A stretch of DNA of 62,526 nt, the filler included. It is 4 parts of 4 records of this genome, joined end to end, with 100 filler letters (N's around TTAATTAATTAA, not from the genome) between each part and the next. Parts side by side here need not be neighbours in the genome. Positions count along the whole stretch, not along the records: positions 53,213 to 62,526 come from SRR2962707_3379; 3 more parts are not named here. The stretch is one strand, 5' to 3'. Shown here piece after piece: positions 32,420 through 62,526 of this stretch. Position numbers and translations under genes: made by a program. The notes beneath the pieces are model-generated. The model was not told the origin of the DNA. It did no database searches and saw nothing but the letters and a program-made list of their open reading frames with translations. Within the stretch, counting starts at the first letter, position 1; each line of letters begins with the position of its first letter.

Positions 32420-32484
32420 CAAGAATTCATCAACTTCTTATCTCTTTTATCTAAATTAGGGATAAACCTACACTACATATTTGA

Positions 32485-32943: not shown

Positions 32944-32990
32944 TGTCCATAATTGATTTTTTATTCGTCAAATAACAAAATAAACTGCTT

Positions 32991-36706: not shown

Positions 36707-36708
36707 GA

Positions 36709-37056
36709 TTACAGATTTCCTAAATGTGTATGTTTAAAGTTATCACTAAACTTTAACCCATATCCGAATATCCGGTCCATACTGGAGTGCCCAAATAAGA
36801 TGATCCCAGCCAGCATGATCTCTTCGGAAATGGCTACCCATCCAAATACCAGGAGCAAAATGGCTATGCCCTTATGATGAAAAATATTGTAGGTGATTGC
36901 CCCCACTTTTGTGTTTATCAGATAGCCCAACATGCCAATGTCAGGAGTAAGTATCAACAGCAAGAATACCCACCAGGCATAATCGAGCAAACTAAATAGG
37001 TAGATTGAAAGAAGGAACATAGCCAGTTCCTCTATTTTGAGCAGGTTTTTCATCAT
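36709..37056 (-). CDS. DUF4260-like membrane protein
   Basis: PDIGMLGYL, YNIFHH, HSSMDRIFGYGLK and FKHTHLG. Confidence 0.85.
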   Translation of the reverse strand: MMKNLLKIEELAMFLLSIYLFSLLDYAWWVFLLLILTPDIGMLGYLINTKVGAITYNIFHHKGIAILLLVFGWVAISEEIMLAGIILFGHSSMDRIFGYGLKFSDNFKHTHLGNL

Positions 37057-37077
37057 TCAGGAAATTATTCCTGAAAG

Positions 37078-37260
37078 TTAGCTTTTCCCGAACTTCTCTT
37101 CCAGCACATTTACCCGGTATTCAAAAATTCCTTTCAATTGTTTCTTGACAAAAAGCGCTTGAGCTATAGACCCTAGAAAACCAAATGGAATCTTGTAAGA
37201 CACTTTATCAGTCATCATGATGCCCTTTTCATTTTCTTCAAAATGGTGCTCATGATGCCA
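37078..37260 (-). CDS. SRPBCC-family protein, C-terminal fragment (5' end cut by contig end; not in ORF track)
   Basis: Manual translation: WHHEHHFEENEKGIMMTDKVSYKIPFGFLGSIAQALFVKKQLKGIFEYR...KS*. Confidence 0.8.
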   Translation of the reverse strand, partial: WHHEHHFEENEKGIMMTDKVSYKIPFGFLGSIAQALFVKKQLKGIFEYRVNVLEEKFGKS

Positions 37261-37262
37261 CA

Positions 37263-37362
37263 NNNNNNNNNNNNNNNNNNNNNNNNNNNNNNNNNNNNNN
37301 NNNNNNTTAATTAATTAANNNNNNNNNNNNNNNNNNNNNNNNNNNNNNNNNNNNNNNNNNNN
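37263..37362. other. Artificial contig linker
   Basis: Same 100-bp N/TTAATTAATTAA spacer. Confidence 0.99.
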
Positions 37363-37943
37363 TCACTCGCAGAGGACTCTGAGGCTACACTTCGATAATC
37401 AACTAAGCTAACCATTCCTTTCTTTCCATTTTCATAAAAACCGGCACTGGAATACAGATACTTTGTAAAATCATCCACCAGGTTCCACTTACCACTCACT
37501 GGATTGTGATGCATGTAGTCAAGTACTTTATTAATGCTTTCCTCACCCACAACTTCTTTCGCATCGAAGGATAAGCGAAAAACCTGATGTTTTTTGCCTT
37601 TTGCTTTTTCATTTTCCTGAACCCCATCGATCAACTTCTCCAGCAGCACATCCTCACCACGTTCCTTCAATCTGGATACAATCTCATAGGCCATAAACCG
37701 CTTACTATCTCCTAGTATACGATTGAATCCTTTGCAATTCTTATCCACATAAATCAATAAGTGCAGATGGTTGGGCATCATCACATAGCCGCAAGTGGTG
37801 AGTCCACGGCTAGACAATTGATCAACCCACCCAGGCAGATACGTATGGATATCTGCTCTCTCTAACAATGGTAGCCACCTGTGACAAGTGAAAGTAGTGA
37901 AATAAAAGGTCTCCTTCTTTTCATGGATGCGATGCGTGGGCAT
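37363..37943 (-). mobile_element. REP-associated tyrosine (Y1/HUH) transposase, RAYT-1; 3' end runs into a REP and the contig end
   Basis: YFTTFTC, MPNHLH (HUH), YMHHNPV (catalytic Tyr) and YSSAGFY; flanked by CCTCAGAGTC...GACTCTGAGG palindromes. Confidence 0.88.
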
Positions 37944-37972
37944 AACCAAATATACTGCTACTTCCTTCTATT

Positions 37973-38040
37973 CCTCAGAGTCCGCTATTCCTCCTCTCTA
38001 CCCCTGAGGTGACTCTGAGGGGGATAAAGAGGGGGATAAA
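37973..38040. repeat. REP hairpin CCTCAGAGTC(37973-37982)...GACTCTGAGG(38011-38020) plus 12-bp tandem duplication GAGGGGGATAAA x2
   Basis: Seen directly. A partial copy (TCACTCGCAGAGGACTCTGAGG) sits at 37363-37384. Confidence 0.75.
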
Positions 38041-38227
38041 TATGCACGTGGTTACTCATCAAACACCAGCTATAGACTATCAGACCCTTTTCTTTCTGAC
38101 AATGCCTGATGCTTTCTAAGAAAATATCACGATAAGACTGGCGCGTGAAAACATCCACCCATTCCACGGTTGCAAAAGTGATAAAATAGATTCCTTCCTT
38201 GTTTTGAATCTTATAATTCCGGCTCAT
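38041..38227 (-). pseudogene. Truncated second RAYT (5' part only)
   Basis: MSRNYKIQNKEGIYFITFATVEWVDVFTR...WCLMSNHVH; homology stops right after the HUH motif at the REP. Confidence 0.8.
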
Positions 38228-38232
38228 GCAAT

Positions 38233-38295
38233 ACAAGTTACAAACTTGTAAGAAAAGCTATCTTCTTTTCTTTTCCGCAAGTTGCAAACTTGCGG
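38233..38295. repeat. Two REP palindromes ACAAGTTACAAACTTGT and CCGCAAGTTGCAAACTTGCGG upstream of RAYT-2
   Basis: Seen directly; a different REP class from the one around RAYT-1. Confidence 0.7.
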
Positions 38296-38330
38296 TAGCT
38301 GTGGGGAAAACTACGCTTAGTTGGAGTTGC

Positions 38331-38873
38331 TTAGTTGGTGTAGCCCGATTTTCTTTTAAGAACTCGTAGATTGTCTTTCTGCTCTTTGATTACTAATAGA
38401 TTGTCCGATAGATGATAAATCACTTCCTCTATGGATTGATAAATTTTGCCATCTTCTCCTTTAAAGGTTAAACCTTGGTCTATGAGTGATTTACCCACTT
38501 GACTATTTTCGTCTATTTCTAAGTAGTATATTATTTTACCTTCACTATAAAGCCAGGTTCCCTTATCAATATTCTCTTCAGTAAACCTTTTGAAGTATGA
38601 GCCGTTTTTTTTGAAATTAATATCGGCCCTTGCAATAACCTCAATAGGGTTTGGGATAAGTCCTTCCCATTCAGGGTGATAAATGGTATCAATTTTATTA
38701 AAGTTTTGATCATATAAGCCCTCGAAAGACCATTCTCCCTCTAGCTCCTCAACTGGATTCTTAAAATCGTTAAAATCAGTTTTGGTAATTGCAGCAACAT
38801 CTTGTGCTCTAGACGTGAAAATACCAATACTGATATTTAATAAAACAGCCTTAACTAAAATCTTATTTACCAA
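38331..38873 (-). CDS. Secreted lipocalin-like protein, possible second immunity/accessory gene
   Basis: Signal-like N-terminus; LEGEWSF, FKKNGSY, GTWLY and LSDNLLVI pattern; overlaps the upstream gene. Confidence 0.6.
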   Translation of the reverse strand: MVNKILVKAVLLNISIGIFTSRAQDVAAITKTDFNDFKNPVEELEGEWSFEGLYDQNFNKIDTIYHPEWEGLIPNPIEVIARADINFKKNGSYFKRFTEENIDKGTWLYSEGKIIYYLEIDENSQVGKSLIDQGLTFKGEDGKIYQSIEEVIYHLSDNLLVIKEQKDNLRVLKRKSGYTN

Positions 38874-39268
38874 CCTGTAATTCCTTTATATATTTCCCTA
38901 TCTGTTAACTCAAAATCAATAACAATACCTAACCTCTTCTCACTTTTAAATTTATGGTCGAAAAGAGTTATATGATCTTTTGGGCTTTCTGGTAAATACA
39001 AAATGTAAAAATATTCACCTTCTTCCTTAGGGCCCTCTAACCATACCGAAGTTCTCTTAGTATATTTCCTTCCTTTCACAACATAAACATAATCAATGTA
39101 CCTTGTGTCAGAAGCGTAAGTTGTTTTATAAATTCGGGCTGGGGTAATTAACCCTTCCCTATATTTATCCACATCATAATATCCTGAGATCAGAACCCAG
39201 AGTATGATAGAAAATATAACCGCTGCAATCCAATAACCTTTCCTGAAAAATGATTTTACTAAATCCAT
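38867..39268 (-). CDS. Putative immunity protein (single TM, DUF3592-like)
   Basis: Start overlaps the Rhs stop; AT-rich; TM followed by IDYVYVVKGRKY...ILYLPESP. Confidence 0.65.
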   Translation of the reverse strand: MDLVKSFFRKGYWIAAVIFSIILWVLISGYYDVDKYREGLITPARIYKTTYASDTRYIDYVYVVKGRKYTKRTSVWLEGPKEEGEYFYILYLPESPKDHITLFDHKFKSEKRLGIVIDFELTDREIYKGITGW

Positions 39269-42200
39269 TACTGATCAAATCCATCTCCCCCCATTATCCT
39301 CTTTGCTACATCATTAACCTGAGTAGGTATTTGATCTCCCAAAACACCTTTCTGTCCTATTGTTATTGCGTCTATCCCAGTGTGAACTAGTGTTTTACCT
39401 GCAGTGTCTAAGATTTCAGCTTTACTATTAACTTTAAGTGTCACACCTCCTTCTCCATTAAAATCCACAAAGTTATTCAGGGCATTTTTAGCCCCGTCTA
39501 CCAAAATTTCTTTTGTTTCGCCTGGTAAAACTTTATCCACTTTACCAAACAATAATCCTGCTGCGTCTACTCCTTCCATTGCACCTTGCCAATCACCTCC
39601 ATTTTTTGCATAATTAAAAGCAAATGATTTTCCATAGGCGGCCCAACCTCCTGGACCAGATAAAATAGAAGCAGTCAAAACGGCCATAGATCTAGTTAAC
39701 GAATTATGAATAAAATTATCTTGACCTCTATAAACTGCTGCTTGAATGCCATTACCATAAACAGTAATTTCTGATAACATAGTTAATTCCAGATTTCCAG
39801 CTTGATCTAAGATGTAATGAGTATGCTTTCCTCCTTGTGTTCCTACTTTTTTGAGACTCCCATCTTCTTGGCGTTGATATACATGATCAAATCCCCCATC
39901 TGGATCAACTCTTCTTATTGGATTATTCCCCATACCAAGATACGAAGAAGTATATTGTCTCATCGGATCCACCTGTAACCACCTCCCAATCAGCGGATCA
40001 TACATCCTCAGTTCAAACGCATTCCATCCTGTCGTTGTATCACTCTCTGCGTACTGTCCCTGATATCCATGTCGGTACGGGTCCCGCTGGGTCTGTACGG
40101 AGTTGTTCCACTGCTTGGCTACCGCACCAAACGGGTAGTAGTCTGTAGAACGAATCATCCGTGTGCCCAGCACAGAGAAGGTGAAATCATCCCAGTAGAG
40201 GTCTACATCACTTTCGTTTACCAGGTAGGCGTAGATGTAGCCATCCTGTGTCACCTCATCTGAAATGGACAGCTGTTTCCATCCATTGTCTGCAGAGGTG
40301 CCTGCCTCCACGGGAATAGCACCATCTCCTACCACATTAAACGATTCATCGAAAAGGATGTATTGCATATAAGCCCTGGTTTCGTTTGAAGAGGTCGTTA
40401 CCGCTGCGAGTAAAGCGTTTACATTGGCCCCTACGGCGTTTGAAAGCAGCCCGCCTTCTACTCCTACTACCGCATCATTGGCACTGGACTGTAGCAAATC
40501 TTCCAAGCCGAACGGTGTAGGGCTTTCAGTACTTGTTCCAGCTTCTTTGAAGAAGACTTCCAGGTTAATCTGATCGCCCTCCTGAACCCGCAGTGTCGTG
40601 GTTGGACCAATCGGCGCACCAGGATGGGTATACGCTGAGTAGCTACCACGGTAGCTATTGGCGACATCCAGCTGTCGGACAGATAGGTTATCAAAATATT
40701 GCGACTCATAGGTATCGTTTTCGGTCTCCATCGTGGCAGTCGCCATCAACCCCAGCTTGGTAGCCAGTGCCCGAACATTGCCTAGATGGTCAGTGAGTTC
40801 ATAGATGTATTTGTAGTGGTCGGGGTTTTTGAAGGCCATGCCCAGTTTGGTGGCTCCATAGATCGGTAGCTCGATCTGAGCAAGTGCCGTTTCAGGATCA
40901 GTTCCCCGGTGATAGATCGCCATCACCTGCCCGGAAGCGTCCCGCACATACCACTCCTCTATCTCTCCTTCCTTTTTCATCATGCGGAAGCCCCGATCAT
41001 CGTAAGCAAAGCTGATCAGTTCTTCTGGGGTGGATGGATTTGTAACATCCCACACCTGGGTCACTTTACCGGTTACATCATAATCAATTTCGATATCCGG
41101 TCGCTCCGGATCGGTATATTCGATTCCGGTTACTTGCCCTATTTCATTGTAATCAATGTTAGAGATATAGCCCGATACACTTTGTAGCCGATTGGTGTTA
41201 GGATAGTAAGTGAAGGTAAAATCATCCCGCTCCGAATTAGGGTCATCGCCGTACCGCTCTATCCGTGAAATATTTCCATTTTCATCGTATCCATCCACAC
41301 TCACATCATAAGCATTGGTTTCAGAACCATCTTTGGTGTAGTCTGCTTTCTTTAGCTGATACTTTTCGTCGTACTCGTACGCGTACACCTCTCCCTTCTG
41401 TGAGTCTACAATCCGCTGGCTTGCCGGCACATCCGGCTTCACCTGTAAACTCACATTTTTCCCATTGGAGTTGAACCCATCAGTCAAAGTGATGGATTTT
41501 TCCGCTTTTCTAGTGAGGTCATCGCTTAGCGTGTTACTGAATGTGAGTTCCTGCTGGTAGTTGTAAAACTTGGCTTGCTTATAGCTGGAGCTATACCCAC
41601 TGTTATCTCCTTCGCCAAATACCATCGCCCGGATGTTTCCATTGTATTGCTGTGGAACCTGTGCATCATCCAGGTCCAATGAACCAATGTTGGAGTTTGC
41701 CGTGGCATAGTCGCCTTCAAAGTATTCCAGGGACATCCCAAAGAAATCTTTATGCACATTGTTGGTCATTCCATCCTTGCCCGGATCCAGGCCACGCACC
41801 GGATGGTTAATGGCTTTTAGCCAGCCCTGTGGTGTATAGGTGTAGTCGATTCCCTGCATATCATCAGCCAGTACCACACGCTTTAACGGTCCGTGTTTAT
41901 AATATTCATACGTCGCATGGAGGTACTTCTCTGTATCAGGTTTTACGGATGTCTCCACCATTTTTAAGCGTTGGTTCTTGTCATAGGTATAGTAGTGCCA
42001 ATAGGCTTCATTGACATGGTCCGGATCACAACCTGAGCTACAATAAGTTTGAGGCTGGAAAGCTACTTTTTCGACATTGCCTAAGAAATCATACGAATAC
42101 CGGATCAGGAAATACTTCTCCAGATCCTTATAGTACTGGAGGAACCATGTCACTCGTCCCTGCTCATCGTAGCTGTACCACGATTGCACTTCTTCGGATT

Positions 42201-44580
42201 CGGTGGAGGATACAGCCCCGGCTACAAACTCCTGTGCCAGCGCATAATCACCTGAAAACTCTGTCGGTAGGGACGGAAGTGTAGCTACATCATAATAGGT
42301 TTTGATCCAGTCTTCCTGATTACCCGAAATGATTCCTGTTTCATTAATGACCAGCTTATGTTGTTTTGTGTCAGAGAAGTACTCATCAAAATCTTTTACA
42401 TTGGATTGTGTAAAAGGCACCATATATTCACCAGACATAATCGGTCTTCCCAGCTTATCATAGGATGTCACAGAAAACCGACTATTCACTCCATCGGCAG
42501 CCTGTTCAGCATTTTGCGAAAAACGTATTTGACCATCGGTTCGGTAAATGTACCGAGTAGTCCCAGCATCCGGTTCGGTCATAGAAGTTAGTCTGCCCTG
42601 AAAATCGTACGTATATAAGGTGGTGTACGGGAGGTTATCAGCAGTATATCCACTCACCCCTCCATTATCTTTTATTTCCTGAACGCCTTTTGGAGTCATG
42701 GATGCAATGAGGCGTCCTTTATTGTCATAAAAATTATAGGTAAAATTCGAATAGGTTAAGGTATAATAGATCGTTGTATTAGATCCATTATTCGTAAATC
42801 GGTAGATGCCGGGAGGCTTGGTTCCGGATTTATTTTTTTCATTAATTAAGTCATAATAAGTATTTGCATCATCATTACTAACACTGAAATGCACTTCATA
42901 AGACTCGCCAGCTCTAACCCACTTACTGTACGTTTCCTCCGGACCTCCGGTACCTATGGCTGAGGCAAAAGTATTTCCACTATCATCAACATACACAATG
43001 GATTGATTGCCGTTTGCATCAATGGCTATTTTTTTAACCAGTCGACTTGAAACACTGTTTTGCCCAACCAATTTATTTCGAATGGCCCAGTAATACTCCA
43101 GCTCTGCTCCTTTTGCCGGTAAGACTTTTCCAACGCTGTTATTCCCACTTTTCAGGAAATGAAAATCGCCCGGCTGAGAAGCTGTTTTTTGTTCACCGCT
43201 TCCATCTTCATAGAAGTTGCTTACTGCATAGGGATGGCTGGTCTCCGGAATCCGTCCGTCATCACCTGTGTTATTGCTGCTGTAGTAATGCCCCAAGGTA
43301 TTGGGTTCCGACTTATCCACTCCTTGCGGGGTGTCTGCACCCCATTCAGATTCACTCAGTTTATTTCCGCCTTTCGTAGCAAAACCTTCTTTAAAGCCAA
43401 TTATATCGTTCCTTCCAATCGGTGCACTCAGTGTTTGACCGACAGCTCGGTCATAATCATCATAGAGCGGTTCGCTGGCAAATACCTCATTTTCTTGTGG
43501 ATTCCATGTTTGTGATTGTAAGGCTTTACCCGCATTGTCAAAATACTGGACAGACTTACTAACAGGTCCTGAGTTATCGTAGCTTGTAGAAGTGATGGAG
43601 TGATAATCAGGGATGAATTCCGTAACATTAATGGTAACAGATGGTGTGTATTGATTGGGTTGTTCAGGGCAATCCTTATCGATCAAAGCACGAATGAGTG
43701 TGGTTTCGTTAAATGTATCCGTATAGCTTATGGACTTGCTGTTGGTGTTTTTAAAAGTCTCCCAATCCCCATCGCCTCGCTTTATTTTCCAATTTTTGAT
43801 GGGTGCTGATGCATCTATCAGTTTTATAGAACCTGACACTTCTTGGCCTTCGTAGACTGTCCTATTACCATATATTCTTCCAAGTTGAGCATTAGAATAC
43901 GTAATAGGTTCAATTATAGTCCTTGATGCGGACTTGATTGAACTGCAACCAGGATCACCGATTGATGCTCTCGCTTCATATGTTCCAATTTCCGAAACGG
44001 TAGTAACTTTTGATGTCGATATTCTCTGACCACTACTATTATACCATCCCATCCATCCACTACTAGCATCTCCATATGTAGTTGCCGATAAGGTTATCTC
44101 ATCACCGTCGCACATAATATATGATGAAAATGAAATTGAAATAGAGCCACTACCCGGATCGCCTACCGTTAATGTTTTTGATTGTGTTGCACTTACAAAA
44201 GGACAATTATTAAATTCATCTATAAATGTAATTTTGTAGTCCTCTGCTCCCGGAGAATATGGGCCTCCTGTTCCACCACTACTAAACTCAGATTCTGCGG
44301 AAACATTGATTGACTTTGAACCAGTACTATTCCAGCGAACTTTCAGTGTCCTGGTGCCTTGCCCACTGATAATAGTTCCTCCAGAAGAAGGGTTCCAATA
44401 ATAAGTCAGACATGAGGAGGGAGCTGGTGCCTCACCACCATCCCAGTTCGCCGTATAGGTAACTTCATCTCCTTCACAAGGTGAGTTGTTATTAGCATCA
44501 ATAGTGAGTCCTTGAGATGGGGCCTGAGAAAATATAATTCTCACGCAAAGAATAAAAAATAGATAGGTTATTGTTCGCAT
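39268..44580 (-). CDS. Rhs-repeat polymorphic toxin (signal peptide, PKD/Ig-like domains, YD repeats, Rhs core, ~208-aa C-terminal payload)
   Basis: YTYDFQGRL, YELTDHLGNVR, DYYPFG, RMYDPLIGRWLQVDP and NNPIRRVDPDG cleavage motif. Confidence 0.92.
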   Translation of the reverse strand: MRTITYLFFILCVRIIFSQAPSQGLTIDANNNSPCEGDEVTYTANWDGGEAPAPSSCLTYYWNPSSGGTIISGQGTRTLKVRWNSTGSKSINVSAESEFSSGGTGGPYSPGAEDYKITFIDEFNNCPFVSATQSKTLTVGDPGSGSISISFSSYIMCDGDEITLSATTYGDASSGWMGWYNSSGQRISTSKVTTVSEIGTYEARASIGDPGCSSIKSASRTIIEPITYSNAQLGRIYGNRTVYEGQEVSGSIKLIDASAPIKNWKIKRGDGDWETFKNTNSKSISYTDTFNETTLIRALIDKDCPEQPNQYTPSVTINVTEFIPDYHSITSTSYDNSGPVSKSVQYFDNAGKALQSQTWNPQENEVFASEPLYDDYDRAVGQTLSAPIGRNDIIGFKEGFATKGGNKLSESEWGADTPQGVDKSEPNTLGHYYSSNNTGDDGRIPETSHPYAVSNFYEDGSGEQKTASQPGDFHFLKSGNNSVGKVLPAKGAELEYYWAIRNKLVGQNSVSSRLVKKIAIDANGNQSIVYVDDSGNTFASAIGTGGPEETYSKWVRAGESYEVHFSVSNDDANTYYDLINEKNKSGTKPPGIYRFTNNGSNTTIYYTLTYSNFTYNFYDNKGRLIASMTPKGVQEIKDNGGVSGYTADNLPYTTLYTYDFQGRLTSMTEPDAGTTRYIYRTDGQIRFSQNAEQAADGVNSRFSVTSYDKLGRPIMSGEYMVPFTQSNVKDFDEYFSDTKQHKLVINETGIISGNQEDWIKTYYDVATLPSLPTEFSGDYALAQEFVAGAVSSTESEEVQSWYSYDEQGRVTWFLQYYKDLEKYFLIRYSYDFLGNVEKVAFQPQTYCSSGCDPDHVNEAYWHYYTYDKNQRLKMVETSVKPDTEKYLHATYEYYKHGPLKRVVLADDMQGIDYTYTPQGWLKAINHPVRGLDPGKDGMTNNVHKDFFGMSLEYFEGDYATANSNIGSLDLDDAQVPQQYNGNIRAMVFGEGDNSGYSSSYKQAKFYNYQQELTFSNTLSDDLTRKAEKSITLTDGFNSNGKNVSLQVKPDVPASQRIVDSQKGEVYAYEYDEKYQLKKADYTKDGSETNAYDVSVDGYDENGNISRIERYGDDPNSERDDFTFTYYPNTNRLQSVSGYISNIDYNEIGQVTGIEYTDPERPDIEIDYDVTGKVTQVWDVTNPSTPEELISFAYDDRGFRMMKKEGEIEEWYVRDASGQVMAIYHRGTDPETALAQIELPIYGATKLGMAFKNPDHYKYIYELTDHLGNVRALATKLGLMATATMETENDTYESQYFDNLSVRQLDVANSYRGSYSAYTHPGAPIGPTTTLRVQEGDQINLEVFFKEAGTSTESPTPFGLEDLLQSSANDAVVGVEGGLLSNAVGANVNALLAAVTTSSNETRAYMQYILFDESFNVVGDGAIPVEAGTSADNGWKQLSISDEVTQDGYIYAYLVNESDVDLYWDDFTFSVLGTRMIRSTDYYPFGAVAKQWNNSVQTQRDPYRHGYQGQYAESDTTTGWNAFELRMYDPLIGRWLQVDPMRQYTSSYLGMGNNPIRRVDPDGGFDHVYQRQEDGSLKKVGTQGGKHTHYILDQAGNLELTMLSEITVYGNGIQAAVYRGQDNFIHNSLTRSMAVLTASILSGPGGWAAYGKSFAFNYAKNGGDWQGAMEGVDAAGLLFGKVDKVLPGETKEILVDGAKNALNNFVDFNGEGGVTLKVNSKAEILDTAGKTLVHTGIDAITIGQKGVLGDQIPTQVNDVAKRIMGGDGFDQ

Positions 44581-47500
44581 CCTGGTAAATTATTATTTCC
44601 ATCTATACATGAAAAAACGGTTTCCTCTACTTCGTAATACCCACAGAAGCCGTCAGCATATCTTTTGATCATGATTCCTGTATAGCATCCATTACTATTT
44701 GTTTCACATCTGGTACTCATCAAAGTCCCTGCAGGACTACAGACCGTTATAACCTTTGTTTGATAATCCGTAAATGAGAGACCTGTCTGATTGTCTGTGA
44801 CAGTTGCTATTATTTCTATTTGTTCAGAACTGGAAAGCGTAATATTCTTATTCAATCCATTAGTGTTTGAAACATTTCCATCAATATCCCATCGAACCTT
44901 ATAGTCACCAGAACCTTCATTACTTAGATCTATTGACAACCTAGTGGTATTGTAATCAATTTGTGAGGTCGTTATCGTTCCATAAAAACTCGTTGAACGA
45001 CCACTTTTATAATGGATCTCTGCATCTGATACTTTCACCGGACCATTGCTAAACGTTTCCCTTGTAACAGACTTGAGCCGCCCCATCTTGTCGTACTCAT
45101 AATGCGTGTAGAGATTATTGGCATCCAGAATATCGGATAGTTCACCCCATTCATTGTAGGCATAGCTGGTCATGGTGGCGTCTATCGGATGAACTCTGAA
45201 ATCGTCCCAATACACCTCGGTATCTGACACTCCCAAAGTAAATACCTCGAGGTTACTGAAGGCACTTGGAACAGGAACATTCAAAGTAATGAGGTACCAA
45301 TCGCCTGATTTTTTTGATTCATCCGGTTTCGCGGTAACCGTGGTAGATCCATCTATTCGATACCTGAGCTTTGCCTCCGGGTGGGTTGTCCAAACAGAGG
45401 CCTTAAATGTTCGCCCTGCAGCTGACGCTGGCAGCCAATACTTAAATGGGTTGCCTGAATTGGATGACCTGAGTGACTTAGTCCCGGTATGCACCGGACC
45501 TTCTGAGATATCAATGATAGCACCACCACTCTTTATTACCCCTCCTCCGAAATACTTTACATTATCTATATCGACCAAATCATCCTCAGCGCCAGAGTAT
45601 GCAAACTCATCGTAACGGGCATTGGCCACTGTTGCAAACACTCGCTGATTGTTATTATCAAACTTGGTCGCTGCAAAGTTGCCATTGATGTCTTTGGCTT
45701 CTAAGGCATGGGAGTTAACGTCATAAAGCGTAATCCTCGACTGTTCTTCCCAGCCCAAACTAGGATTTGCATAGCCATCATCAATCTCAAACGTAGGTAT
45801 ATAGCCATCCGCTATTTCAATGTTGAAAGTTCCATCATCATTAAATTGTCTAAAACCGGATTGTGAATTTCTTGGGTTTTTATTTACGTAGTATTTATGC
45901 TTTCTAAATGCAGCCGAAGAAGAATACTTCGTATTTCCGTCCATGATATCAACACCTTGAGACCAAGATTGGAAGGTGGCACTTATTAGTCCAACTGCAT
46001 CTCTTCTCAATGCACGAGGATCTGAATAATCATACGAATAGTCATCCGGATCAAACTCATCTTTTAGGGTAAACACATACGTTTCGCCTTCCTGGGTTAG
46101 CATATTGTAGGCTTTCATGCTTCCGTATGTTTTATAGGCAGGAATCGATTTGGTAGCTATTTTATTACCATATCCATCTTCTTCATAGGTTTCAGTGACC
46201 TGACCAGAGTAGAAGTCGAATGCCAGGTTTCTTGATTCCGAGGTTATTCCAGTGCGATAGTTTGTCTTTCGCGTACCTAATTGAATCGATGGATATTTTT
46301 CCCGGGCCGTGGTGACAGCATATAAATCAAACTTATCTCCGGGAACTCTGACATACCTAGCACTTAAATAGGCTTCATGAATTACCCCTTGGTTATTGAA
46401 TCTTTCATCAAGCAGATCTTCATACTCATTTATGTTATTGTAAAACTTATCCTCAGAAGAATTCCCATTTGGAAGTTGATCATGCAAATAGATATTTTCA
46501 GTCTTAGAAATGAGCTGATCTTGTTGATCATACACGGTAATGCTTTTCAAATTGCCTACCCTGTTCGTATAATCCTTTAATTGCAATGAAGCTCGTTTGA
46601 ACTTGACCGTAGTGAAGTTCACATCGAAACCGGGATCTTTTGTTCCCGGGTGATCTGATGTATTTTGTTGACCTTCGAGTGGGTTATACATCCCCACCAT
46701 ACTCGGGTCAAAAGTTTCAAATTCATACACTGAGTATGAGGGTAATTTTCTGGTGACACCATCTACCTTCACAGACTCTTCAACCTTCACGCGACCATAT
46801 AGTACCCCTGGCGATGGGATTTCAGTAGCCAATTTCAATAAGTCTTGATTTTTCTTAAAAACGATATCATAATAATTCTGAGCATAAATTTCTCTAGCAT
46901 CGTTTTCTTTTTCACGAACACAGGAAGTTTTATCCGGTGACAAAAGGTTTCCAAAAGGAACTCCCATCCCTATAGGTTCATATGAGGTCGCACCTTCTTC
47001 ATATTCATAATTTGTAATATTTTCCGAAAATCCATTATTGACAGAAATCTTATCGACTTTGAGTCCACCGCCTTTCCTAGATAGCCTCGCTTGCTTATTT
47101 GTTAAACTAAGAACTCCAGATACTATTACTCTATCAGTATACCCTGCTTTTGTAGTAAGTTCCGCGTTTTGCACGATCATAGAATTCGAATTGACCGAAA
47201 TGACTTTGACCAAGTCATTAAACTGATGCCAAGACCAATTCCTTGTCTGAATACTACCATCACAGCTTGTGAAATCTGACCAAGTGGTTCGAGTTAAGGC
47301 TGCCAATTTGATATCTTTTCCAACTAAGTTGTCAAAAGAGCCAAGTGAGATATCATTATAGAATTCGAGGCGTAATCTATTCTGAGCTTCATTTGTAACA
47401 ATAATATCCTTTATTAATAGACTTGGTTTGGACATTAATGCTACTTCATACTCATCGGGAGAGTAAGAGATTTCGATTTCTGAACCAAGCGAAGTATTTA

Positions 47501-53112: not shown

Positions 53113-53212
53113 NNNNNNNNNNNNNNNNNNNNNNNNNNNNNNNNNNNNNNNNNNNNTTAATTAATTAANNNNNNNNNNNNNNNNNNNNNNNNNNNNNNNN
53201 NNNNNNNNNNNN
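53113..53212. other. Artificial contig linker
   Basis: Same 100-bp spacer. Confidence 0.99.
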
Positions 53213-54790
53213 GGACCTCTTCCCCTCTCCTCCCCCCCCCCCACTTGCACCCACAAACAGACAATCAAACATACTTCTGCGGCCGGACGAGGTGTTGCTG
53301 GTGGAGGAAACCAAACTCCGAACGTCGGAGGCTCTCGCTGTGTTCGGGGAACTTGCGCATCACTGTGAACGCCCTGCACGAGTTTTGTGGGAGCTGCGCA
53401 ACCCCCCTTTTTTTTGCTATTTATTGTAGGTTTGGTATGAAACTTCGCGGTGTGTTGCTGATTGAAAGTCTGGAACATTATTAATTCTTGCAAAACCTTG
53501 GTTGGAAATGGTGCGCCATCGCATGCAGTTTTGACAGTTTTTTTTACCAAACAATGTGGTAGATATTTTATCCATTAGATTTGTCAGAGGTACCTTTTGC
53601 AGTTTTTATTAAAAACCAAGCACTTGAGCCTTTAACTCAGATTGTTGCCTGGCGTCAAGGGACGTGGGCGTAGAATACGAAGCCAGAGCGCTTGCCTCCA
53701 GCACTACAAGATGGGCCGTAGGCAAAATCATCAGCACTTGCACAAATACTGTAAACTGCAACTATTCAGTACGCAGCGAGCGCCCCGAAAACGTCAGCAT
53801 GGTCAACTGATAGCTTCAGAAGGAGGCAGCTCCAGTATTGACATCGCAAGACCACCGAGTATTTGCGTCGCAAACAATAATTGCACGCCACCTTCGACGC
53901 ATGGTGAACAGAAGCAGTTTTTACCACAAACCATCACTAGCAGCCAGCAAAAGTGGGTAAAACCTTTGAGTTCTTTGTTGTCCAGTGAACGTGCACGACT
54001 GCATGTGTTTAATACCTTGACTTTTTTTTCTTCCGAATTGTGCGGCACCAAGCGCTCTTGCGCGACAACTCTTTCCTGGTCCAGGGCAAACAAATTCCAA
54101 GAAAAAGCGAGTACAGATCTCAACAAACAGTGAACAAAAGAGCGTATGCGCGCAAGTTCCAACAGCAAAAGATTGTCGACGAACTTGCAACTCGAGTGTC
54201 GCCCGTGTTGGTGATGACTCTCAAACGAATGGCGGCCGAGGATCCGAAGGTGGACAAGGAAGCACACGCCTAAAAAAGCACAACAGCTTTCAAACAGATC
54301 CCTTTGTAACTCCAGAAAAACCTGTTGAAAGTGTTCAACAAAAGCTCGACGCGAAACGCTCGACCAAGTCGGGAGCGTCGAGAAAGTTGGGTCCTCAAAC
54401 ACTGACGATTCTACCTCCTCGACATGATTTATTCCGCCCGTTCGACCGACTCGCACAGGAGGAGGGCGACACTGATGTAGAGGCGATTGCATATGACCAA
54501 CGCGATGCAGTTGAGAGTGTTCGAGACGCAGTTTGCTGGTTGAAGTGCAACGTCCTGCCCTCCGACAGCCGTCGTATCAAATGGATGTGTTCAAGGGACC
54601 GCTTTGAGTCTACAATCGCGTTCTAGAACAATATCCGTGTTGCGGGGGAGCATACGCCGCCTGTGGATATGAGAAACTACTCGATGAGGTATTGTGTGAT
54701 GCCTGTGATGTCAATGCGCCCATGTTCAAGGATCTACCGGACACGGTTCGTTGTTCTTGTTTCGCATTTTTTCAAAATAAATTCACATTT
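53213..54790 (+). CDS. Possible spliced eukaryotic gene of unknown function (structure unresolved)
   Basis: Several open segments bounded by plausible GT/AG sites; no recognisable domain. Confidence 0.25.
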
Positions 54791-54805
54791 TTTATCACGC
54801 TTTTG

Positions 54806-57800
54806 TCAAAAGCCAAAGCGCAAACGCATGATTTTGTCTTCAAATCCATTGAGCAGCAGGCACGTCTCCGTGCAACGCAGATTTGAGACAGTTGCGGTGT
54901 TTGTATCGAAACCCCACAGTTTCTTCAGAGAAGTACCGCCCTTTTCGATGCCCCACACCTAACAAAAAATCAAAACCAATACCAGACCACAACAACCGTG
55001 CTCAGCAATGAGTGCTGCAAACTGGACAACAGCAGTGGCAGAACGAACGAGTGACGTACCTGCAATAACCCGGTTTGCAGGACGAGAACAATCCGCCCGC
55101 CAGTTGCATCAAGGAAGCAACACTTGGGTGTGTCGTCAATAACCACACGACACTGCTGACTCACATACACCGCTGGCAATAAATAGCGTGGAGACGGCGC
55201 AGTGGTTGCTTTTACAGCGGCCCCTCGAGCTGCAAGCAGGTCCTTTGTGAATGTTTGAACAGTGCAGCTTTGATCTTGATCAAAGTTGCTGGTCCGTTTG
55301 GCACCCGCTGCACCACCACCACCACTAGCGTCGCTTGCCGCACCAACGAGTGGAGGGGGCGCACGTTTTGTAGATCCCGTGATATTGCTGGATGTAAAGA
55401 TGATTTCACCGTAAGACATGAAAGCACCTTGAAGCAAAATGAAGCGATTTCCATTGACGCTCATTTGGGGTTCGGTCTGAGAGCAGCGTCGCAACGACAG
55501 GAGATACAGGGACAAAGGTTACGCTGTGTATCAGTTCACATTGGTAGACAACTGGATCATCAAACTACGAACGTGTAATGCCGATTGTCGGATGTGACTA
55601 TGCGAAAGTACGATTCCGTGAATGAGGTCAATAAAGACAATTGTCAGTACTTCCATGGAGCTGCACACACAGACGAGGACTGGGGGATCGTCCCGCGAAA
55701 CCCCGCGAGTAATGACAGCACAGTATGAAAGCTGCTTCTCAAACTTTATGGTGTGACGACGGATGCCCGCCTCCACATCCCACACGTAGACTTCATCTTC
55801 ACTTGTGGCGCTCCAGCACAAGTCATTGCCTTGGAATCGTGAACGAAACGACGCAAATAAATTCGAATCTGGACGGCAGTGAAAGTAGCCCACCTGTGGT
55901 CGCCCCGAACCCGACGAGAACAAAGACAAGACGAAGTTCAGCCCTTTGCACGACCGGATTCCATTCAGATCCTAGGCCTTCGAAAAAACGTAGACTTGCC
56001 TGTGTCACTGAGCCTGCGTGCCCATCTAGAGTGCGGCAACACTTCCATTCTCCGCGGGAGGCGACGCTGGGCATGCCTGTTATTAATTTCCAGACTTTTA
56101 CAGAATTTCTGCCCACATCGCATGCAATCCGATCAACACAAAATTGCATGGGAAATTGAACCAAATCGACACAAACGACCAGCAGCCAGTACAACACGCG
56201 CATCAAAACGAGAATCGCAGACAAACCGGAACTGTAGTGCGTTGGCTCCATGTGCCATCCACGGAAGAAGCCCAGAGCCAGATATAATGGTCGAGTTGTC
56301 ATCGCACACATGAAGCGCAGTCACAGCATTGACATGGTTGTCAGGGAGTGGTTCTGAAATTGCGTCGGTGTCGACGTCACCCACGCGGATAGTTCCATCA
56401 AATGAACCTACTGCAACGAGATTTGTACTCGAGGCAGCATACTCTTGGATGTGCATTTGAAAGCGCAAGGGCCCTACGAACCGAGTACACAGCAGAAATC
56501 GAGTCAAAACTCAACTTTTCAAAACAAACCCAGTGCTCAAATCGGCGAAACCCGTGCAAACAAGTTGTTGTTAACAAGTTCGCACACCTTGCGACATTGG
56601 TTGACCAGTTTGCCAATTGCGCCGACAAACAACTTTCTCAGTGTGAAACAGTTTGTACTGTGCACGCGATGCCGCAAAAGTGCTCTCCGTCACCGCACCC
56701 AAAACCTGCAGCCCAAGTAAATTCAACACAACCACCACAGCAGCAACAAGAGCACGAAGTAAACTACCGATGGGCCACAACTGCCACGAGCACGGCTACA
56801 ATGCATGAATTCGCTTATATCAACTACAAAGTTTGCATCAACTTGCCTTGTGCGAAAAGTCTCTTTGCAAGAGCCCTGCCCAGAACCCCATCGAGATATT
56901 GGTGTCCGCCAAGAAATTGCGGATGCGCCAACAAGTCAACATCATGCTGTGGATTTCGCCAATTCGCAAAAAAGACATGACTTGCGATAACGTGTGTGCG
57001 TTAGTCAATAGCCACGCTATGCGACGTCGCGGACTTGAGGGTTCAAGGTCACTGCTTTCACTTTTGCCACGCATGGCTTCCGTGCTGTGCGTTTCGTCAG
57101 AATCAGTGGAATTCGAAGTGGTCGAAGGCACTGGCACCATTTCTATTGATGTCTTATCCTCAGGACTCGGGGACGGTGCGCGGTCAGGTGTTCGGCTCGA
57201 TTCTGTTCCTTTCGATTCCGCATTTTCAATGAAGAAGTTGGGGTACCTATGACACGATTAACAAAGCACTCAAGGTGTGATCAACGAGCGCTCTGCACGA
57301 TGCCATCAATTGCATGACTCGCCCCGACACCTCAGTGTCCATACGCTTGTGGTCCAGACACAGACAGATTCCTACCCCATTCCGTCGGCGAATTGAAGAT
57401 CGAGACCAGCCTCTTCAAGGCTGGCAGATGTCCGGAGCAACGTTGGAGTTGCGTAGCGCATAAAAAAAAATATCACCAAAGCCGTACACGACGACCATCT
57501 AGCAGAGTTGCGTTGATGGTTTAAGTTTTCAGAATCATGATCACGGCCCAAAGATCAGACGCAACCAGACTTGGGATTCTCTCGCTACATGCTCCAGGCA
57601 ACGACGTACACAACAATGACGAGAAGACCAAGAAGTTGAATGCCAAGGCCGCGAAAATTTCCGGAATAGACTAACCCTGGAACTTCTGAGGGTGAAAGCT
57701 CAGGGCAAGCAAATATCCCCGTTAGAACCACACCTTCACGAAGAACAGTGCAAGCAAAAGTTATCCAAGCGCCACACAAGTTTTGCAGTGCAAGCACACG

Positions 57801-59985
57801 GGCAGGTCTCGAATATCCACACAGAAAACCGGAAAGTATTCAACGACAAAACTTCACGGACCCACAGATCCTGCTCCAGCGTGAACAGCGAATGCATCCA
57901 CAGGATCGTCAACGCGACAGCGAAGAGCCAAGATGCTGCACACACGCAAACGCAAAGCCATTCGCGCTGTCAGAAATATTGGTGCAACAGACCATTTGTG
58001 ATCGAGCAAGAGTATCCGTTGTTTTACCTGTATCCGTGAGTCACAATCGCGCCGAGCAGCCCGATCACAAATGCCGCCCAAGTGTCGACATAGCCACAGC
58101 CCGAAGTGATCGCCTTCAAACAAAACCGTGAAATGTGTCAAACAGCGCCGTTTGGCGTTCAAAAACGACACAAGCGTGCGAGAAGAGCAGAGAGACCTCG
58201 GCCACGTACAACCAAAGACGCCAATATGGAGTTCATGATGATTGTCAAATTGTGTTCTGATCGCGCGAGGGATATCCCAATGCCCGCCTATGGTCATACG
58301 TACCAGCAGTCAAAACTAAACAAGCAAGGTCGACGCGAATGCGACACCGCAGCGGTTGTTTCGAAAAGCGATGGTGCACACGAAACTAAGCGTACCACAA
58401 GACCTGCTCCAAATGCTATGACTGTGTTGGAAGCTGCCAGACTGGAGACATAAAAGTCGCTCACAAGCCCATCGTTGAGCCGAGATGCATTGAATCCAGT
58501 CCAACCGAAGAAAAGAATCCAAACTCCGGTCACTGTGAGCGAAGAGGAGTGCTTACCAAAGTTGCGAACAGTCACAACGCCATCTTGTGTGACTCGGAAC
58601 CGGTTTGCACGGGGCCCAATAACGGCAGCTCCGACGAATGCACAAAGTCCTCCGGTTACATGCACAACTCCCGATCCCGCAAAATCAAGGAAGCCCAAAT
58701 TTTCAAGGAAACCGTCAGGGTGCCAAGCCCAGTAGCTCAGAATCGGGTAGGTCACGATTGACATGTAGACTGAGAAAAGGACATATCTTTCAGAAGTTCC
58801 CGGGTCATGCAACAAACATCATACAGGGGCAGTCATTTATGAGGACTCGAAATGGCACGAGCTCATGCGCGGGGACAAATGTGCATACGACTAGACTTAG
58901 GGACTCACCCATATGCCTCCATTCTCCCAAGCGTACCCCCACTGACAATGGTCACGGACGTGCTACAGAAGCTCAACGATGAGAGCCACAGACTCAACTT
59001 TTCAGGGCCGGAGCGCCTTGACAATGCGATGGAGTCTACATCAAGAGTAGCGATGGCAAACCTACCGCATCAGCACATGATCACCACAACGGGGCAACAA
59101 CAACAAAATGACAAGTAAGTGAGGACTGGTTGGCGCACAAGGGGGGAAACATGCTGGGTTTCCACGCTTCACAGTACACAAGAGAAGTGCGTCGTACCCA
59201 AACAGCCACCACGCAATAATGGTGGTGCCAAAATCCATCAAGTTCTTCAATAGAACAGCTTTCACGCTATTAGCACGCGCTATTCCCGCTTCGAGGAGCG
59301 CGAAGCCCGTTTGCATGAACAGAATGTTGAATGTCGTCAGCAGCGTCCAGGATACTACTGTGGCTGTATCGGCCGTAGCATTCGTCAAGTTGGCAATGTC
59401 TTCCAAATCGTCGACGCCAAGGGCGTATTGCATTTGTACCTATCAACCCAACGCAATCGATGTGAGACATTTTCTCTGGTATTTTGGCACGGCAGGCACC
59501 GACGGCAAGCCAACGAGAGCCCATACCACAGAACTGGCAAGCAATTGGACAGATTCGGAGAGACAGGCCACGTCCGAACATTCTTGTGCTTCGAGACCCT
59601 GCACATTGCTTGTGGAAACGGACATGTTTTTTAAAAAAAAAAAGCAACTGCTCTTTTAAGGGTCAACAACGGTATGCGTTCGCGTCAATCACGTAGACCA
59701 TGGATGGAAAGGGCCGCAAGCGCGCGGCCGCACAAGCAGCGTGCCAGGTGGTATTGAGTTCGGTATTATTTTTCGAATGCTTTTCCCGAGTGCTTTAATA
59801 ACCGGGTGAAACAAGTCAAAACTAGCAACCCTGGATTCTTCAGCGTCACCGAGTGCCGAGTTGAGGGTCGAGAGACGCTGCTTCTCTCGTTCTGAGAGTG
59901 AGTCACGAGAGGGCGAGCTTCGAGCTTCGGAGCGAACGGGGGACGAGACGATAGTCAACGAGTCAACGTCTCGTGCTTCTGCCAC
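54806..59985 (-). CDS. amt: Eukaryotic multi-exon gene: Amt/Mep ammonium transporter fused to an F-box-like motif and WD40 repeats (5' exon unresolved)
   Basis: Exons 59985-59734, 59598-59527, 59439-59198, 59061-58909, 58786-58396, 58287-58210, 58113-58028, 57935-57862, 57733-57610, 57498-57376, 57246-56847, 56705-56588, 56473-56227, 56108-56000, 55893-55573, 55476-55060 and 54958-54806 total 3360 nt, all phases consistent. Motifs: FMQTGFALLEAG, DFAGSGVVH, GWTGFN, DDPVDAFAVH, EEAGLD, F-box-like segment, RNWQTG, GSFDGTIRV, GHAGSV. Confidence 0.8.
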
Positions 59986-60064
59986 CTAGCGGTGTCGAAA
60001 GCTGGATTTCGGTGCTTTCACACGTGCGACCGGGACCCTCGGGCGGGTGAGCAAGCGAATCAGC

Positions 60065-60217
60065 GTGACTTCGTGCTTTCGCGAGTTCGCGAGTTCGCGA
60101 GTCCGCGAGTCCGTGACTCTGCGAGTCCGTGAGTCCGTGCGTTCGCGAGTTCGTGAGTCCGCGAGTCCGCGAGTTCGTGAGTCCGTGAGGTCTGTGACCC
60201 CGTGAGCCCGTGACTCC
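60065..60217. repeat. Octamer minisatellite G(C/T)GAGT(C/T)C, about 19 degenerate copies
   Basis: Seen directly, just upstream of the first resolved amt exon. Confidence 0.9.
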
Positions 60218-60914
60218 GTGGCTACGTACGTGACTGATGACTCCGTATGGTCAAGTATGTTGTATGTGATGTACAACGTGTATGTATGTTGTTGTCCTGT
60301 TTGTATGGTCATGTATGTTGTTGTAAAAAGGCAGCAAGCGTGATGAGCGGCTGCGGTTGGTTGGTTCCAGGTGGCCGCCGCTATGGTTGTTGTTGTTGTG
60401 TGGTGGTGTGTGTGTGTGTGGGTGCATCATGGTCGTGAAGAACAAACAAAGTGGTGACTCGCATAGCCTTGAGCCCAGTGTTCTTCAGGCTTAGTAACCG
60501 GAACTGTTTGAAAAACGATAGTTTATCGACCTACAACGTTTGCGTTGGAAGTATGTATGGTCATACGACACGGAGCGTGTGCGAAAAGTGTTAATTTAGC
60601 AGTTGGAACTGCCAGCGTCGTTTTGGTTTGGTCATCGCTGGACTTTGTCCCCTAGCCCCTCGTCATGCTGGGCAATACCGGGTATCTTGGCAACACCACT
60701 ACGAATCACGACCTCGGTGGCGGAACCGGGATTCAGGGCCAACGTGGTGGGCGCAAAGCGTGGAAGCTTTCAGAAAAGTGTTTCCAAAGTCGCGACGTTT
60801 GTGGCTGTCCTGAATAAGCGTCGGCATGGGTACAATGGCAGAAAAAATCTCCACAGCTTGCACACCCACACCACCACCAGCTCGTATCACGAATCACTCA
60901 CGAGTAGGACACCT

Positions 60915-62504
60915 TCAGTCATCCTGTGAATAGTCGTCATCGTCGTCGTTGTCGTCTTGGCTGAAGTCGTTGTCGTCGTTGCTGTAGTTGCTCCCGTCAT
61001 CCTCTGCGTCTTGTTCGTTCGTGCTGGCAGCCGGAGGTGCGCCGTTCTCATCACTGCCAGAGGTGCCCGATTCAGGAGCGCTGAGGGGTTCCCTGGGTTC
61101 AGCCGGCTCCTTCACCAGCGCATGTCCGGCATCATCATCAGTGGGATCGTTGCTGTAATCGTCTTCGTTGTAGTCCTCGCTGTCGGTTCCGGACCCGCTG
61201 CCGTCCGCGTTGGCAGCCTCTGCGACTAATTTCATTGGATCCTTATCCGTCTGAGCGCTCGCCACAGTGCTGTCGAGGGACACATCGGCAACTGCCTTCA
61301 GCGCACCAGGCGAAACCACAGGCGCTTTCTTGTCCTTCTTCTCTCGCGAATCGCTGCGGATTCTTCCAGCGCCCGCATCTCCTCCAATAGTTCCAGGATC
61401 TGAGTGTGCTCCGACAATGGACGTCGCGATGGACCACGGGCGCGGACGGTTGGCGCGAAGTTCGGCGCGAGTTGGTGCCGGGTTATCACGGCGGGCTTTT
61501 GGCTTTTTGCGCATGTGGCTTTGCCATGGACGGGCTCGTGCTTCTCTCTGAGCTCGGCGATCTTTCTCAGGTTCCGATTCTGGCTCCGCCTTCGCAGTTT
61601 TCATGTTGGCGACCCACGGACGAGGACGCTGCTGGCGTCTTGTGCTTCTGTCAAGATCTTCTGCGGCGGTACTGGCATTGGTAGCAGCATTGTCACCTTC
61701 GTGTTCATTTTCAGAATCGTCGCCACTGGCCTCCAACTGCTGTCTGGACGTCGCTTTCATGCAGCGTGTCCAAGGCCGTGGTCGTGACTGACGCAGAGTC
61801 GCTCGATCAACCTCGGGCTCTTGGACCACCGGAGGCCGCGCAGTCTTCGACATCTTGTGCTTCCATGGTCGCTCTTCAATGTTGTACTTCTCCCATATTG
61901 AAACATCTTTTTCCGGAGAAGGGGGCTTCGGTTTTGTAGACATGTGCTTCCGCCACGGCCGCGCTTCGATTTTGTACTTGCTCCAAATGTCTTGCGGGCT
62001 ACCAGTAGGTTTGGCTTCAGGACCACTGCCTGTTTCCTCATTCGTATCCATTGCAGAAGCTCTTCCACCACCAGACGTCAAAGAAGTGCTTTGAGGTTTG
62101 GTGTTTTTCTGCTTCCGCTTGGTCTTTTCAAGGGCAGGGTCATTTTCACGAACATGACTGGCAGGACGGCTTTTGCGAGTGGGCGTGAGTTTTTGCTTGT
62201 CTTGCCACCACGGCGCGACTGCAGCAGAAGAGGCTCGGTTGATTTCTTCAGCAGAGACGTGAAGAAGCGCAGGTATATCGAGCGTCGATATGTTGGCCGA
62301 GCTGAGAGAACTTACTATGTTGAGCAAAGTGCCGTCATCCAACGGAGCGTGGATATTCTGCTCCCTCAGAAATCGTTTGATTGCTTCTTTCTCGCAGTTC
62401 ATTGTCGTCCGACAAGCCGGCAAGTTCGACACCGCAAAAATCTCACTGTTCAGGCCACTACTGTCGGTGCCATTTGCGCCACCGCCGCCAACCGAACACA
62501 ACAA
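60915..62504 (-). CDS. Eukaryotic low-complexity protein with six RPW repeats and an acidic tail (start uncertain, possibly ATG near 62402)
   Basis: 529-aa uninterrupted ORF; repeats such as IWSKYKIEARPWRKHM and DRATLRQSRPRPWTRCM. Confidence 0.7.
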   Translation of the reverse strand: MLCSVGGGGANGTDSSGLNSEIFAVSNLPACRTTMNCEKEAIKRFLREQNIHAPLDDGTLLNIVSSLSSANISTLDIPALLHVSAEEINRASSAAVAPWWQDKQKLTPTRKSRPASHVRENDPALEKTKRKQKNTKPQSTSLTSGGGRASAMDTNEETGSGPEAKPTGSPQDIWSKYKIEARPWRKHMSTKPKPPSPEKDVSIWEKYNIEERPWKHKMSKTARPPVVQEPEVDRATLRQSRPRPWTRCMKATSRQQLEASGDDSENEHEGDNAATNASTAAEDLDRSTRRQQRPRPWVANMKTAKAEPESEPEKDRRAQREARARPWQSHMRKKPKARRDNPAPTRAELRANRPRPWSIATSIVGAHSDPGTIGGDAGAGRIRSDSREKKDKKAPVVSPGALKAVADVSLDSTVASAQTDKDPMKLVAEAANADGSGSGTDSEDYNEDDYSNDPTDDDAGHALVKEPAEPREPLSAPESGTSGSDENGAPPAASTNEQDAEDDGSNYSNDDNDFSQDDNDDDDDYSQDD

Positions 62505-62505
62505 G

Positions 62506-62526
62506 CAGCAGCAGCAGCAGCAGCAG
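62506..62526. repeat. (CAG)7 microsatellite at window edge
   Basis: Seen directly. Confidence 0.9.

Follow-up and report, generated by a model that had tools for sequence, protein, structure and literature searches.

A spliced minus-strand gene joins an ammonium transporter to an F-box/WD40-like module

The stretch of DNA analysed here (62,526 nucleotides (nt), hereafter the window) carries on its minus strand a marine protist gene in which a single spliced open reading frame (ORF) joins a sensor-type ammonium transporter (Amt) to an F-box/WD40-like module, a genuine and conserved gene fusion. The coding region (54806..59625) starts at an ATG at 59625 and comprises 16 exons and 3135 nt, that is, 1044 codons and a TGA stop at 54808-54806. 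From the N-terminus, the 1044-amino-acid (aa) protein contains an Amt/Mep domain (57381..59349, exons 2-9, residues 64-455), a YPNF tail motif followed by an acidic Ser/Pro/Thr-rich linker (57027..57245, residues 458-530), an F-box-like helical segment (56847..57026, residues 531-590, IAWLLTNAHTLSQVMSFL...FWAGLLQRDFSHK), a helical linker with QYKLFHTEKVVCRRNWQTGQP encoded by exon 11 (56588..56705), and a divergent WD40 propeller encoded by exons 12-16 (54809..56473, residues 630-1044); exon 15 contributes a low-complexity insert. All of these features lie on the minus strand.

The gene model was built from stop-free segments and GT/GC-AG sites and has 15 introns of 87-141 nt each. Two of them (56846-56706 and 55999-55894) are GC-AG introns whose donors are both perfect GCAAGT matches. 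X1, the sole public run in which the stretch was found and whose kind is recorded as a guess ('RNA?'), yielded a single 4076-nt contig at a depth of 33 with 0 mismatches. It omits all 15 introns at the model coordinates, including both GC-AG introns and the intron at the fusion joint (57375-57247). A cluster look-up further returned P0188, a 1044-aa ORF labelled 'complete' from a public transcriptome-derived proteome, which matches the gene model in every one of its 1044 residues. The organism named in its accession is Incisomonas marina (Stramenopiles, Bigyra, Nanomonadea), and the protein's source name is an automatic ORF label only. The X1 contig and P0188 may share transcriptome data and are thus possibly not independent of each other.

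An earlier note on this DNA, made from the letters alone, had described a gene of many exons on the minus strand, with introns of 87-141 bp, and had singled out the splices 57376/57246 and 56847/56705. The model and the fully spliced contig confirmed the gene structure, and both splices are exact in each. The Amt motifs quoted in that note are all present in the spliced translation, as are its F-box-like, QY..NW..G and WD-like strings, these last three being conserved in both orthologues described below. Its count of 17 exons and about 1119 aa, starting at 59985, was not supported. An in-frame TAA (59658-59656) lies ten codons upstream of the ATG, the RNA contig, which starts near 59783, is unspliced from 59524 to 59700 (contig position 84 corresponds to window position 59700), and both public ORFs of this gene, P0188 and the P0001 described next, begin with MSVSTSN. 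These observations give 16 exons and 1044 aa, and the contig-covered segment at 59626..59783 (minus strand) is accordingly a 5' untranslated part. P0001, a 376-aa ORF from a public transcriptome, is a shortened version of this protein caused by a retained intron 7 (57862-57734) and ends in ...HAGAGSVGP, so at least one intron-retention product of the gene is on record.

The fusion is conserved in two orthologues

Two further proteins share this architecture. P0003, an ORF of 957 aa, comes from a Logan contig of 3944 nt that belongs to another organism, and is 47.5% identical to model residues 75-995 over 967 columns. L002, a seawater metagenome contig, gave a stop-free spliced model of 1057 aa; it was obtained by a profile search of metagenomes together with L001, which is 99.8% identical to it. 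In L002, one exon spans the last membrane helix, ...GLDFQFADGMAYPNFIIEN..., the entire linker and the first F-box-like residues, and therefore no intron or stop interrupts the joint. The window gene and L002 have 10 of 15 intron positions in common in both column and phase, five in each half. They differ within the F-box-like segment, which is a single exon in the window gene and is interrupted in L002 by two introns flanking an 11-codon mini-exon (VLAFLPISDVM, 5884-5916).

Sequence identity between the window protein and L002 or P0003, respectively, is 73 and 63% in the Amt domain, 36 and 16% in the linker, 57 and 42% in the F-box-like segment, 62 and 45% in the helical linker, and 57 and 43% in the propeller. 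A single conserved multidomain protein would be expected to show just this combination of high domain identity and low linker identity. The joint itself is also conserved, the splice 57376/57246 giving ...ADGMG-YPNF and the orthologues reading ...ADGMAYPNF and ...ADGLGYPQF. The proposal in the earlier note that Amt and F-box/WD40-like parts form one polypeptide is thus supported by the RNA contig, the identical public ORF and two orthologues.

Two explanations would remove the fusion or reduce its importance. A misassembled genome or a chimeric transcript could have merged two neighbouring genes, and the window is indeed a chimeric scaffold, with pieces joined by runs of N and 99% identity to a bacterial chromosome over positions 1-20000. 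However, the gene lies entirely within one N-free piece (53213-62526), intron positions on both sides of the joint are shared with L002, and four lines of evidence agree, namely the X1 contig, P0188, P0003, and L002 with its one-exon joint. Misassembly is excluded for this gene, and we regard the chance of an artefact as negligible. The locus could instead make two products, with retention of intron 9 (57247..57375, minus strand, 129 nt) giving a normal 457-aa Amt and the fused form being a regulated or minor isoform. The donor of intron 9 (GGG|GTAGGA) overlaps a TAG at 57374-57372, at which a stand-alone Amt would end if the intron were retained, and P0001 provides a precedent in being an intron-retention isoform of this gene, albeit of intron 7. 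Against this, intron 9 is skipped in the fully spliced X1 contig, no intron is present at this joint in L002, and P0003 also reads through it. The fused form is therefore the conserved product, and we give very little credence to the two-product explanation.

The Amt half is of the receptor type

The N-terminal half matched Pfam PF00909 (Ammonium_transp) with an E-value of 8.2e-86 (288.7 bits against a cut-off of 23.2) over profile positions 2-396 of 399. Among solved structures, P0188 was closest to the sensor proteins Sd-Amt1 (8qj3/8qpf, 1.2e-40) and Ks-Amt5 (6eu6, 1.4e-35), followed by yeast Mep2 (8.7e-33), Af-Amt1 (8.6e-29) and AmtB (1.9e-27). The Amt identity claimed in the earlier note therefore holds, and specifically as a receptor type. 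Eleven helices and a cytoplasmic C-terminus are predicted by homology to solved Amts, the topology of this half having been scanned only by crude hydropathy.

Sd-Amt1 and Ks-Amt5 are the characterised ammonium receptors, whose fused kinase or diguanylate cyclase is driven by the Amt module (PMC5764959 and PMC11152129). All seven residues of the N1/N2 site are identical in the window protein and Sd-Amt1 (Q76, E83, N99, D102, F103, T151 and S154, corresponding to Q22, E29, N45, D48, F49, T104 and S107), and in the alignment with 8qj3_A the twin-His residues H207 and H368 align with His-169 and His-323. Judged by these residues, the Amt half is of the receptor type and keeps both the N1/N2 sensing residues and the twin-His pair. 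Two points temper a sensing role. The strict AmR pattern (QX6EX15NX2D[F/T]X54-60TX2[S/T]) is not matched by the window protein, whose gap before TIVS measures 47 residues where the pattern has 54-60. P0188, L002 and P0003 all match its first part, which occurs in only 31 of 190 fetched proteins; the strict pattern occurs in 15 of the 190 and in none of the three orthologues. Moreover, the N1/N2 site is also found in plant AMT1 transporters, according to PMC11152129, and the residues therefore allow a sensing role without proving one.

A long, poorly conserved linker separates the two halves

The linker, 69-86 residues long across the orthologues, follows a conserved YP(N/Q)F motif. All three linkers are acidic, contain 80-87% disorder-promoting residues and are poorly conserved (16-36% identity over residues 458-530). 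That of the window protein measures 69 residues, of which 87% are disorder-promoting, with 14 acidic against 7 basic residues. Serine/threonine-proline (S/T-P) sites number four in the window linker and two and none in the other two. In Sd-Amt1, by contrast, the connector is helical (PMC11152129). Because the linker is acidic, disorder-promoting and only 16-36% conserved, direct allosteric coupling of the rigid kind used by bacterial sensor Amts appears doubtful here.

The C-terminal half resembles F-box/WD40 substrate receptors

The propeller is the better defined part of the C-terminal module. It spans about 415 residues with WD-like blades that are conserved in the orthologues. Exon 12 searched against solved structures gave FBXW7 as the best natural match (2.2e-7), followed by WDR5 (7e-7), with the designed propellers Ika8 and Tako8 reaching down to 3.7e-20. 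The profile A2 returned WD40 matches only, WDR5 being aligned over profile positions 125-269, or approximately four blades; with the profile A5, for which all 957 columns were used, the list was filled by Amt matches. Pfam WD40 and propeller families reached 1e-5 to 4e-5 on the window exons and 1e-5 to 1e-3 overall, all below their cut-offs. The WD40 identity proposed in the earlier note holds.

N-terminal to the propeller, the F-box-like part contains about 60 conserved residues (L.....TL..V...L...., T.RR...FL.D...SMG.W..LLQRDF..K). The helical linker that follows has the pattern QY[KR]LF..E...C..NW..G.P, which is conserved in all three orthologues; the models of P0003 and P0188 predict it to be helical, with low confidence. 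Pfam F-box was the single family match of the 70-aa piece from the window, scoring 14.3 bits (E = 0.041) over profile positions 9-37 of 43, where the curated cut-off is 20.5 bits. We compared language-model features of P0003 with a protein atlas. For residues 478-957, the best clusters were F-box or F-box/WD40 (scores of 0.97-0.93), and nine of the ten best share a family. For the helices alone (474-578), all ten best were F-box clusters, with a top score of 0.85 that random sequences often reach. AlphaFold model 1 (P0003 residues 470-957) placed FBXW7, beta-TrCP, FBXW11, Cdc4 and FBXW8 in the first rows of a Foldseek search, none with E<=1e-3 and with a TM score of about 0.13. A VIA search with the same model ranked first a Legionella protein of unknown function, matched over the helices (Z 8.0), and gave FBXW7 a Z of 6.5 at a root-mean-square deviation of 9.2, both of which are background values.

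Several results weigh against an F-box/WD40 assignment, and most of them concern the helical segment. No F-box family (PF00646 or PF12937) matched any of the orthologues above its curated cut-off, and Pfam F-box found nothing on whole P0003 (E<=1), on its 488-aa C-terminal part (E<=10) or on full-length P0188 (E<=1). The exon 10 helical piece searched against solved structures returned no F-box protein, only two irrelevant matches (E = 0.76 and 4.9). We read the orthologue alignment against the LP proline and Trp positions that are hallmarks of canonical F-boxes; T or H occupies the former and I or T the latter in all three orthologues. Helices are predicted in this segment, but both structural models are poor. 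Model 1 has a mean predicted local distance difference test (pLDDT) score of 46.5, with 64-78 locally, and model 2 (P0188 residues 527-634) a mean of 62.5. With model 2, which covers the domain only, neither Foldseek (best E = 1.9) nor VIA (best Z = 5.7) gave a meaningful structural match. In the propeller, PF00400 (WD40) scored 24.4 bits on exon 12 and 19.9 bits on P0188, below the cut-off of 27, and exons 14-16 matched no Pfam family. We also sought reference F-boxes with PF12937 in 21 bacterial and 14 control genomes, where no match was found.

Taken together, the C-terminal half is probably homologous to F-box/WD40 receptors. For the helical segment alone an F-box identity is weakly supported, and whether it would retain Skp1 binding we judge to be evenly balanced. 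The order given in the earlier note (F-box-like helices, NW..G helical linker, propeller) is present, and the F-box falls below every curated threshold.

The C-terminal module is confined to three organisms in the searches made

Within the searches made, the C-terminal module was seen in three organisms only, those of the window gene, P0003 and L002. With the exon 10 query run on longer proteins, none of the 147 candidates obtained a score. A word-index search with P0003 residues 478-957 found P0003 itself alone among 7999 scored candidates of 526-1675 aa. HMMER with P0003 against the whole library gave 10608 matches at E<=1e-3, the best 150 of which, P0003 aside, match the Amt part. When both C-terminal halves were compared with 187 fetched proteins by phmmer, P0003 was the only match, and a scan of genome contigs for the C-terminal module pattern gave 335 pattern matches and no relative. 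The gene is absent from the nearest genome, G001. Pfam detects the Amt domain alone above cut-off on all three proteins.

Relatives of the Amt half are more varied. P0002 and P0004 are Amt fragments of the same subclade and are 63-69% identical to the three orthologues. The nearest long relatives, both eukaryote-type fusions, are P0042, with two Amt domains and a guanylate/adenylate cyclase (2e-84 by HMMER against P0003), and P0044, with two Amt domains and a protein kinase (2.6e-83). This Amt clade has therefore served repeatedly as an input module. About 18 giant proteins of this kind, of 900-2800 aa, are among the best 150 HMMER matches.

An Amt-F-box or Amt-WD40 fusion is undescribed in the literature searched, which covered full text and stops short of figures and supplements, including Fig. 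7B of PMC11152129. Domain organisations of eukaryotic fused Amts are given in this figure and in the supplements of that paper, and they may bear on novelty. Nothing comparable was found for membrane-anchored F-box proteins among the literature matches listed. In a Dictyostelium review, ammonia cues are one component and FbxA, an F-box/WD40 protein, is another, separate one. The sequence of the present protein is public, and within the literature searched a fused sensor-Amt with an F-box/WD40-like output is an addition to the known fused sensor-Amts.

Surroundings of the gene in the window

Positions 1-26173 of the window are bacterial and of low G+C content (about 33%), and 1-20000 are 99% identical to and collinear with G001, a 4.5-Mb prokaryote genome. 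No match to G001 was found for 26274-46000 or for the Amt gene; bacterial DNA, from a co-cultured organism or from prey, is therefore linked to protist DNA in this scaffold. Each of the gaps at 26174-26273, 37263-37362 and 53113-53212 consists of two runs of 44 N placed 12 bases apart. The jump in G+C content coincides with the first of these gaps, and the N-free piece after the third gap contains the Amt gene.

About 14 copies of CGCGAGTC-like units (8/16/24 nt) form an array at 60064-60220, which precedes the transcript start by roughly 300-450 nt. The neighbouring long open frames at 60915-62525 (minus strand), 53803-54576 (minus strand) and 54021-54626 (plus strand) match no Pfam family; that at 60915-62525, upstream of the gene, is acidic, contains repeated RPRPW-like motifs and continues off the window. 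On the downstream side, the X1 contig extends about 677 nt beyond 54700 into open frames, and the 3' untranslated region may overlap the neighbouring gene.

A proposed membrane-bound adaptor and its alternatives

The two halves together suggest a receptor-type Amt carrying, in the same chain, a module like the F-box/WD40 substrate receptors of Skp1-cullin-F-box (SCF) ubiquitin ligases. Both the SCF function and its coupling to ammonium are proposed from sequence, and we hold this combined reading tentatively, at slightly less than even confidence. AmtB and Mep2 form trimers with the C-terminus inside the cell. Since Amts are trimers with a cytoplasmic C-terminus, a trimeric Amt, expected here by homology, would display three adaptor modules at the inner membrane face. 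In this position, Skp1-cullin would be recruited by the F-box-like helices, and proteins near the membrane would be chosen by the propeller as ubiquitination targets. The trimeric transporter could also supply oligomerisation in place of a dimerisation domain. Because the linker is probably disordered, ammonium status would be relayed less by a rigid lever than by changes of the conserved Amt tail together with phosphorylation of the tail or linker, which may change how accessible the module is or generate its targets. A bolder version makes the protein an ammonium receptor and at the same time the substrate-recognition subunit of a membrane-bound trimeric SCF, in which N1/N2 occupancy directly sets the ubiquitination targets at the membrane. 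This version we consider unlikely; if true, it would place a nutrient-to-proteolysis pathway within one polypeptide and make the protein the first polytopic transporter known as an F-box protein.

Comparison with known systems helps to place the proposal. Like Ks-Amt5 (Amt plus histidine kinase) and Sd-Amt1 (Amt plus HAMP and diguanylate cyclase), the protein has a cytoplasmic output fused C-terminally to a closely matching Amt, with the same N1/N2 and twin-His residues as Sd-Amt1. Those proteins are bacterial and have enzyme outputs, whereas the window protein is eukaryotic and has an F-box/WD40-like adaptor; its connection is a long acidic disorder-promoting linker in place of a helical connector, and its signature spacing is 47 instead of the published 54-60. 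P0042 and P0044 are likewise close Amt relatives with signalling outputs, and P0044 matches the strict N1/N2 pattern, but both have tandem Amt domains and enzymatic outputs and show no similarity to the C-terminal module. Yeast Mep2 and plant AMT1 share a conserved cytoplasmic regulatory tail with the window protein, Mep2 being in addition a good solved match. Mep2 and plant AMT1 signal via separate kinases and partners, whereas in the window protein a presumed partner-binding module is part of the same chain.

SCF receptors of the Fbw7/Cdc4/beta-TrCP type show the same order of F-box-like helices, NW..G helical linker and WD40 propeller. FBXW7 is the best natural match of the first blades, and proteins of this kind head the non-significant Foldseek list. 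The window protein differs from them in its sub-threshold F-box without the LP and Trp residues noted above, in a far more divergent propeller and in that its Skp1 binding is putative. Fbw7-type receptors have a dimerisation domain N-terminal to the F-box; in the window protein, a linker to an 11-helix transporter occupies that place.

The features that set the module apart from working SCF receptors raise the alternative that it descends from an F-box/WD40 ancestor, has lost SCF function and now serves as a membrane-tethered binding platform. Its binding partner might be a kinase, a regulator or the cytoplasmic face of the pore itself, by analogy with the docking of GlnK on AmtB. The replaced LP and Trp positions in all three orthologues, the uniformly sub-threshold F-box scores, the very divergent propeller with its exons 14-16 free of Pfam matches, and the lack of any relative of the module beyond three organisms in the searches made would all fit this explanation. 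However, the helical segment is conserved to about the same degree as the propeller (42-57%), which shows constraint on a specific surface, and the independent leads all concern F-box families, with none to a different helical fold. We regard loss of SCF function as rather unlikely. Alternatively, the module could act in cis, with SCF ubiquitinating its own transporter or trimer neighbours and so driving ammonium-dependent Amt turnover or endocytosis. The adaptor-driven down-regulation known for nutrient permeases would here be built into the transporter itself. A flexible covalent tether of 69-86 residues would suit targets in the same trimer, the window linker offers four S/T-P sites, and F-box proteins are commonly auto-ubiquitinated. 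These sites are not conserved, though (four, two and none), and a receptor-type N1/N2 site would not obviously be needed for such a function, so that action in cis seems distinctly improbable. The reading of a receptor-type Amt with an SCF-receptor-like adaptor remains the one we prefer, at the tentative level given above.

The fused sensor Amts characterised so far are bacterial and have kinase or cyclase outputs; here, a eukaryote combines the same sensing residues with a ligase-adaptor-like module. The family also illustrates how such architectures stay hidden, as Pfam annotates the Amt only and the public ORF carries an automatic label. The fusion offers concrete, clonable constructs for reading out the conformational states of eukaryotic Amts. 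If the module recruits SCF, the protein would be a rare integral-membrane F-box protein in which the sensing of ammonium feeds directly into protein degradation, a logic new to nutrient transceptors.

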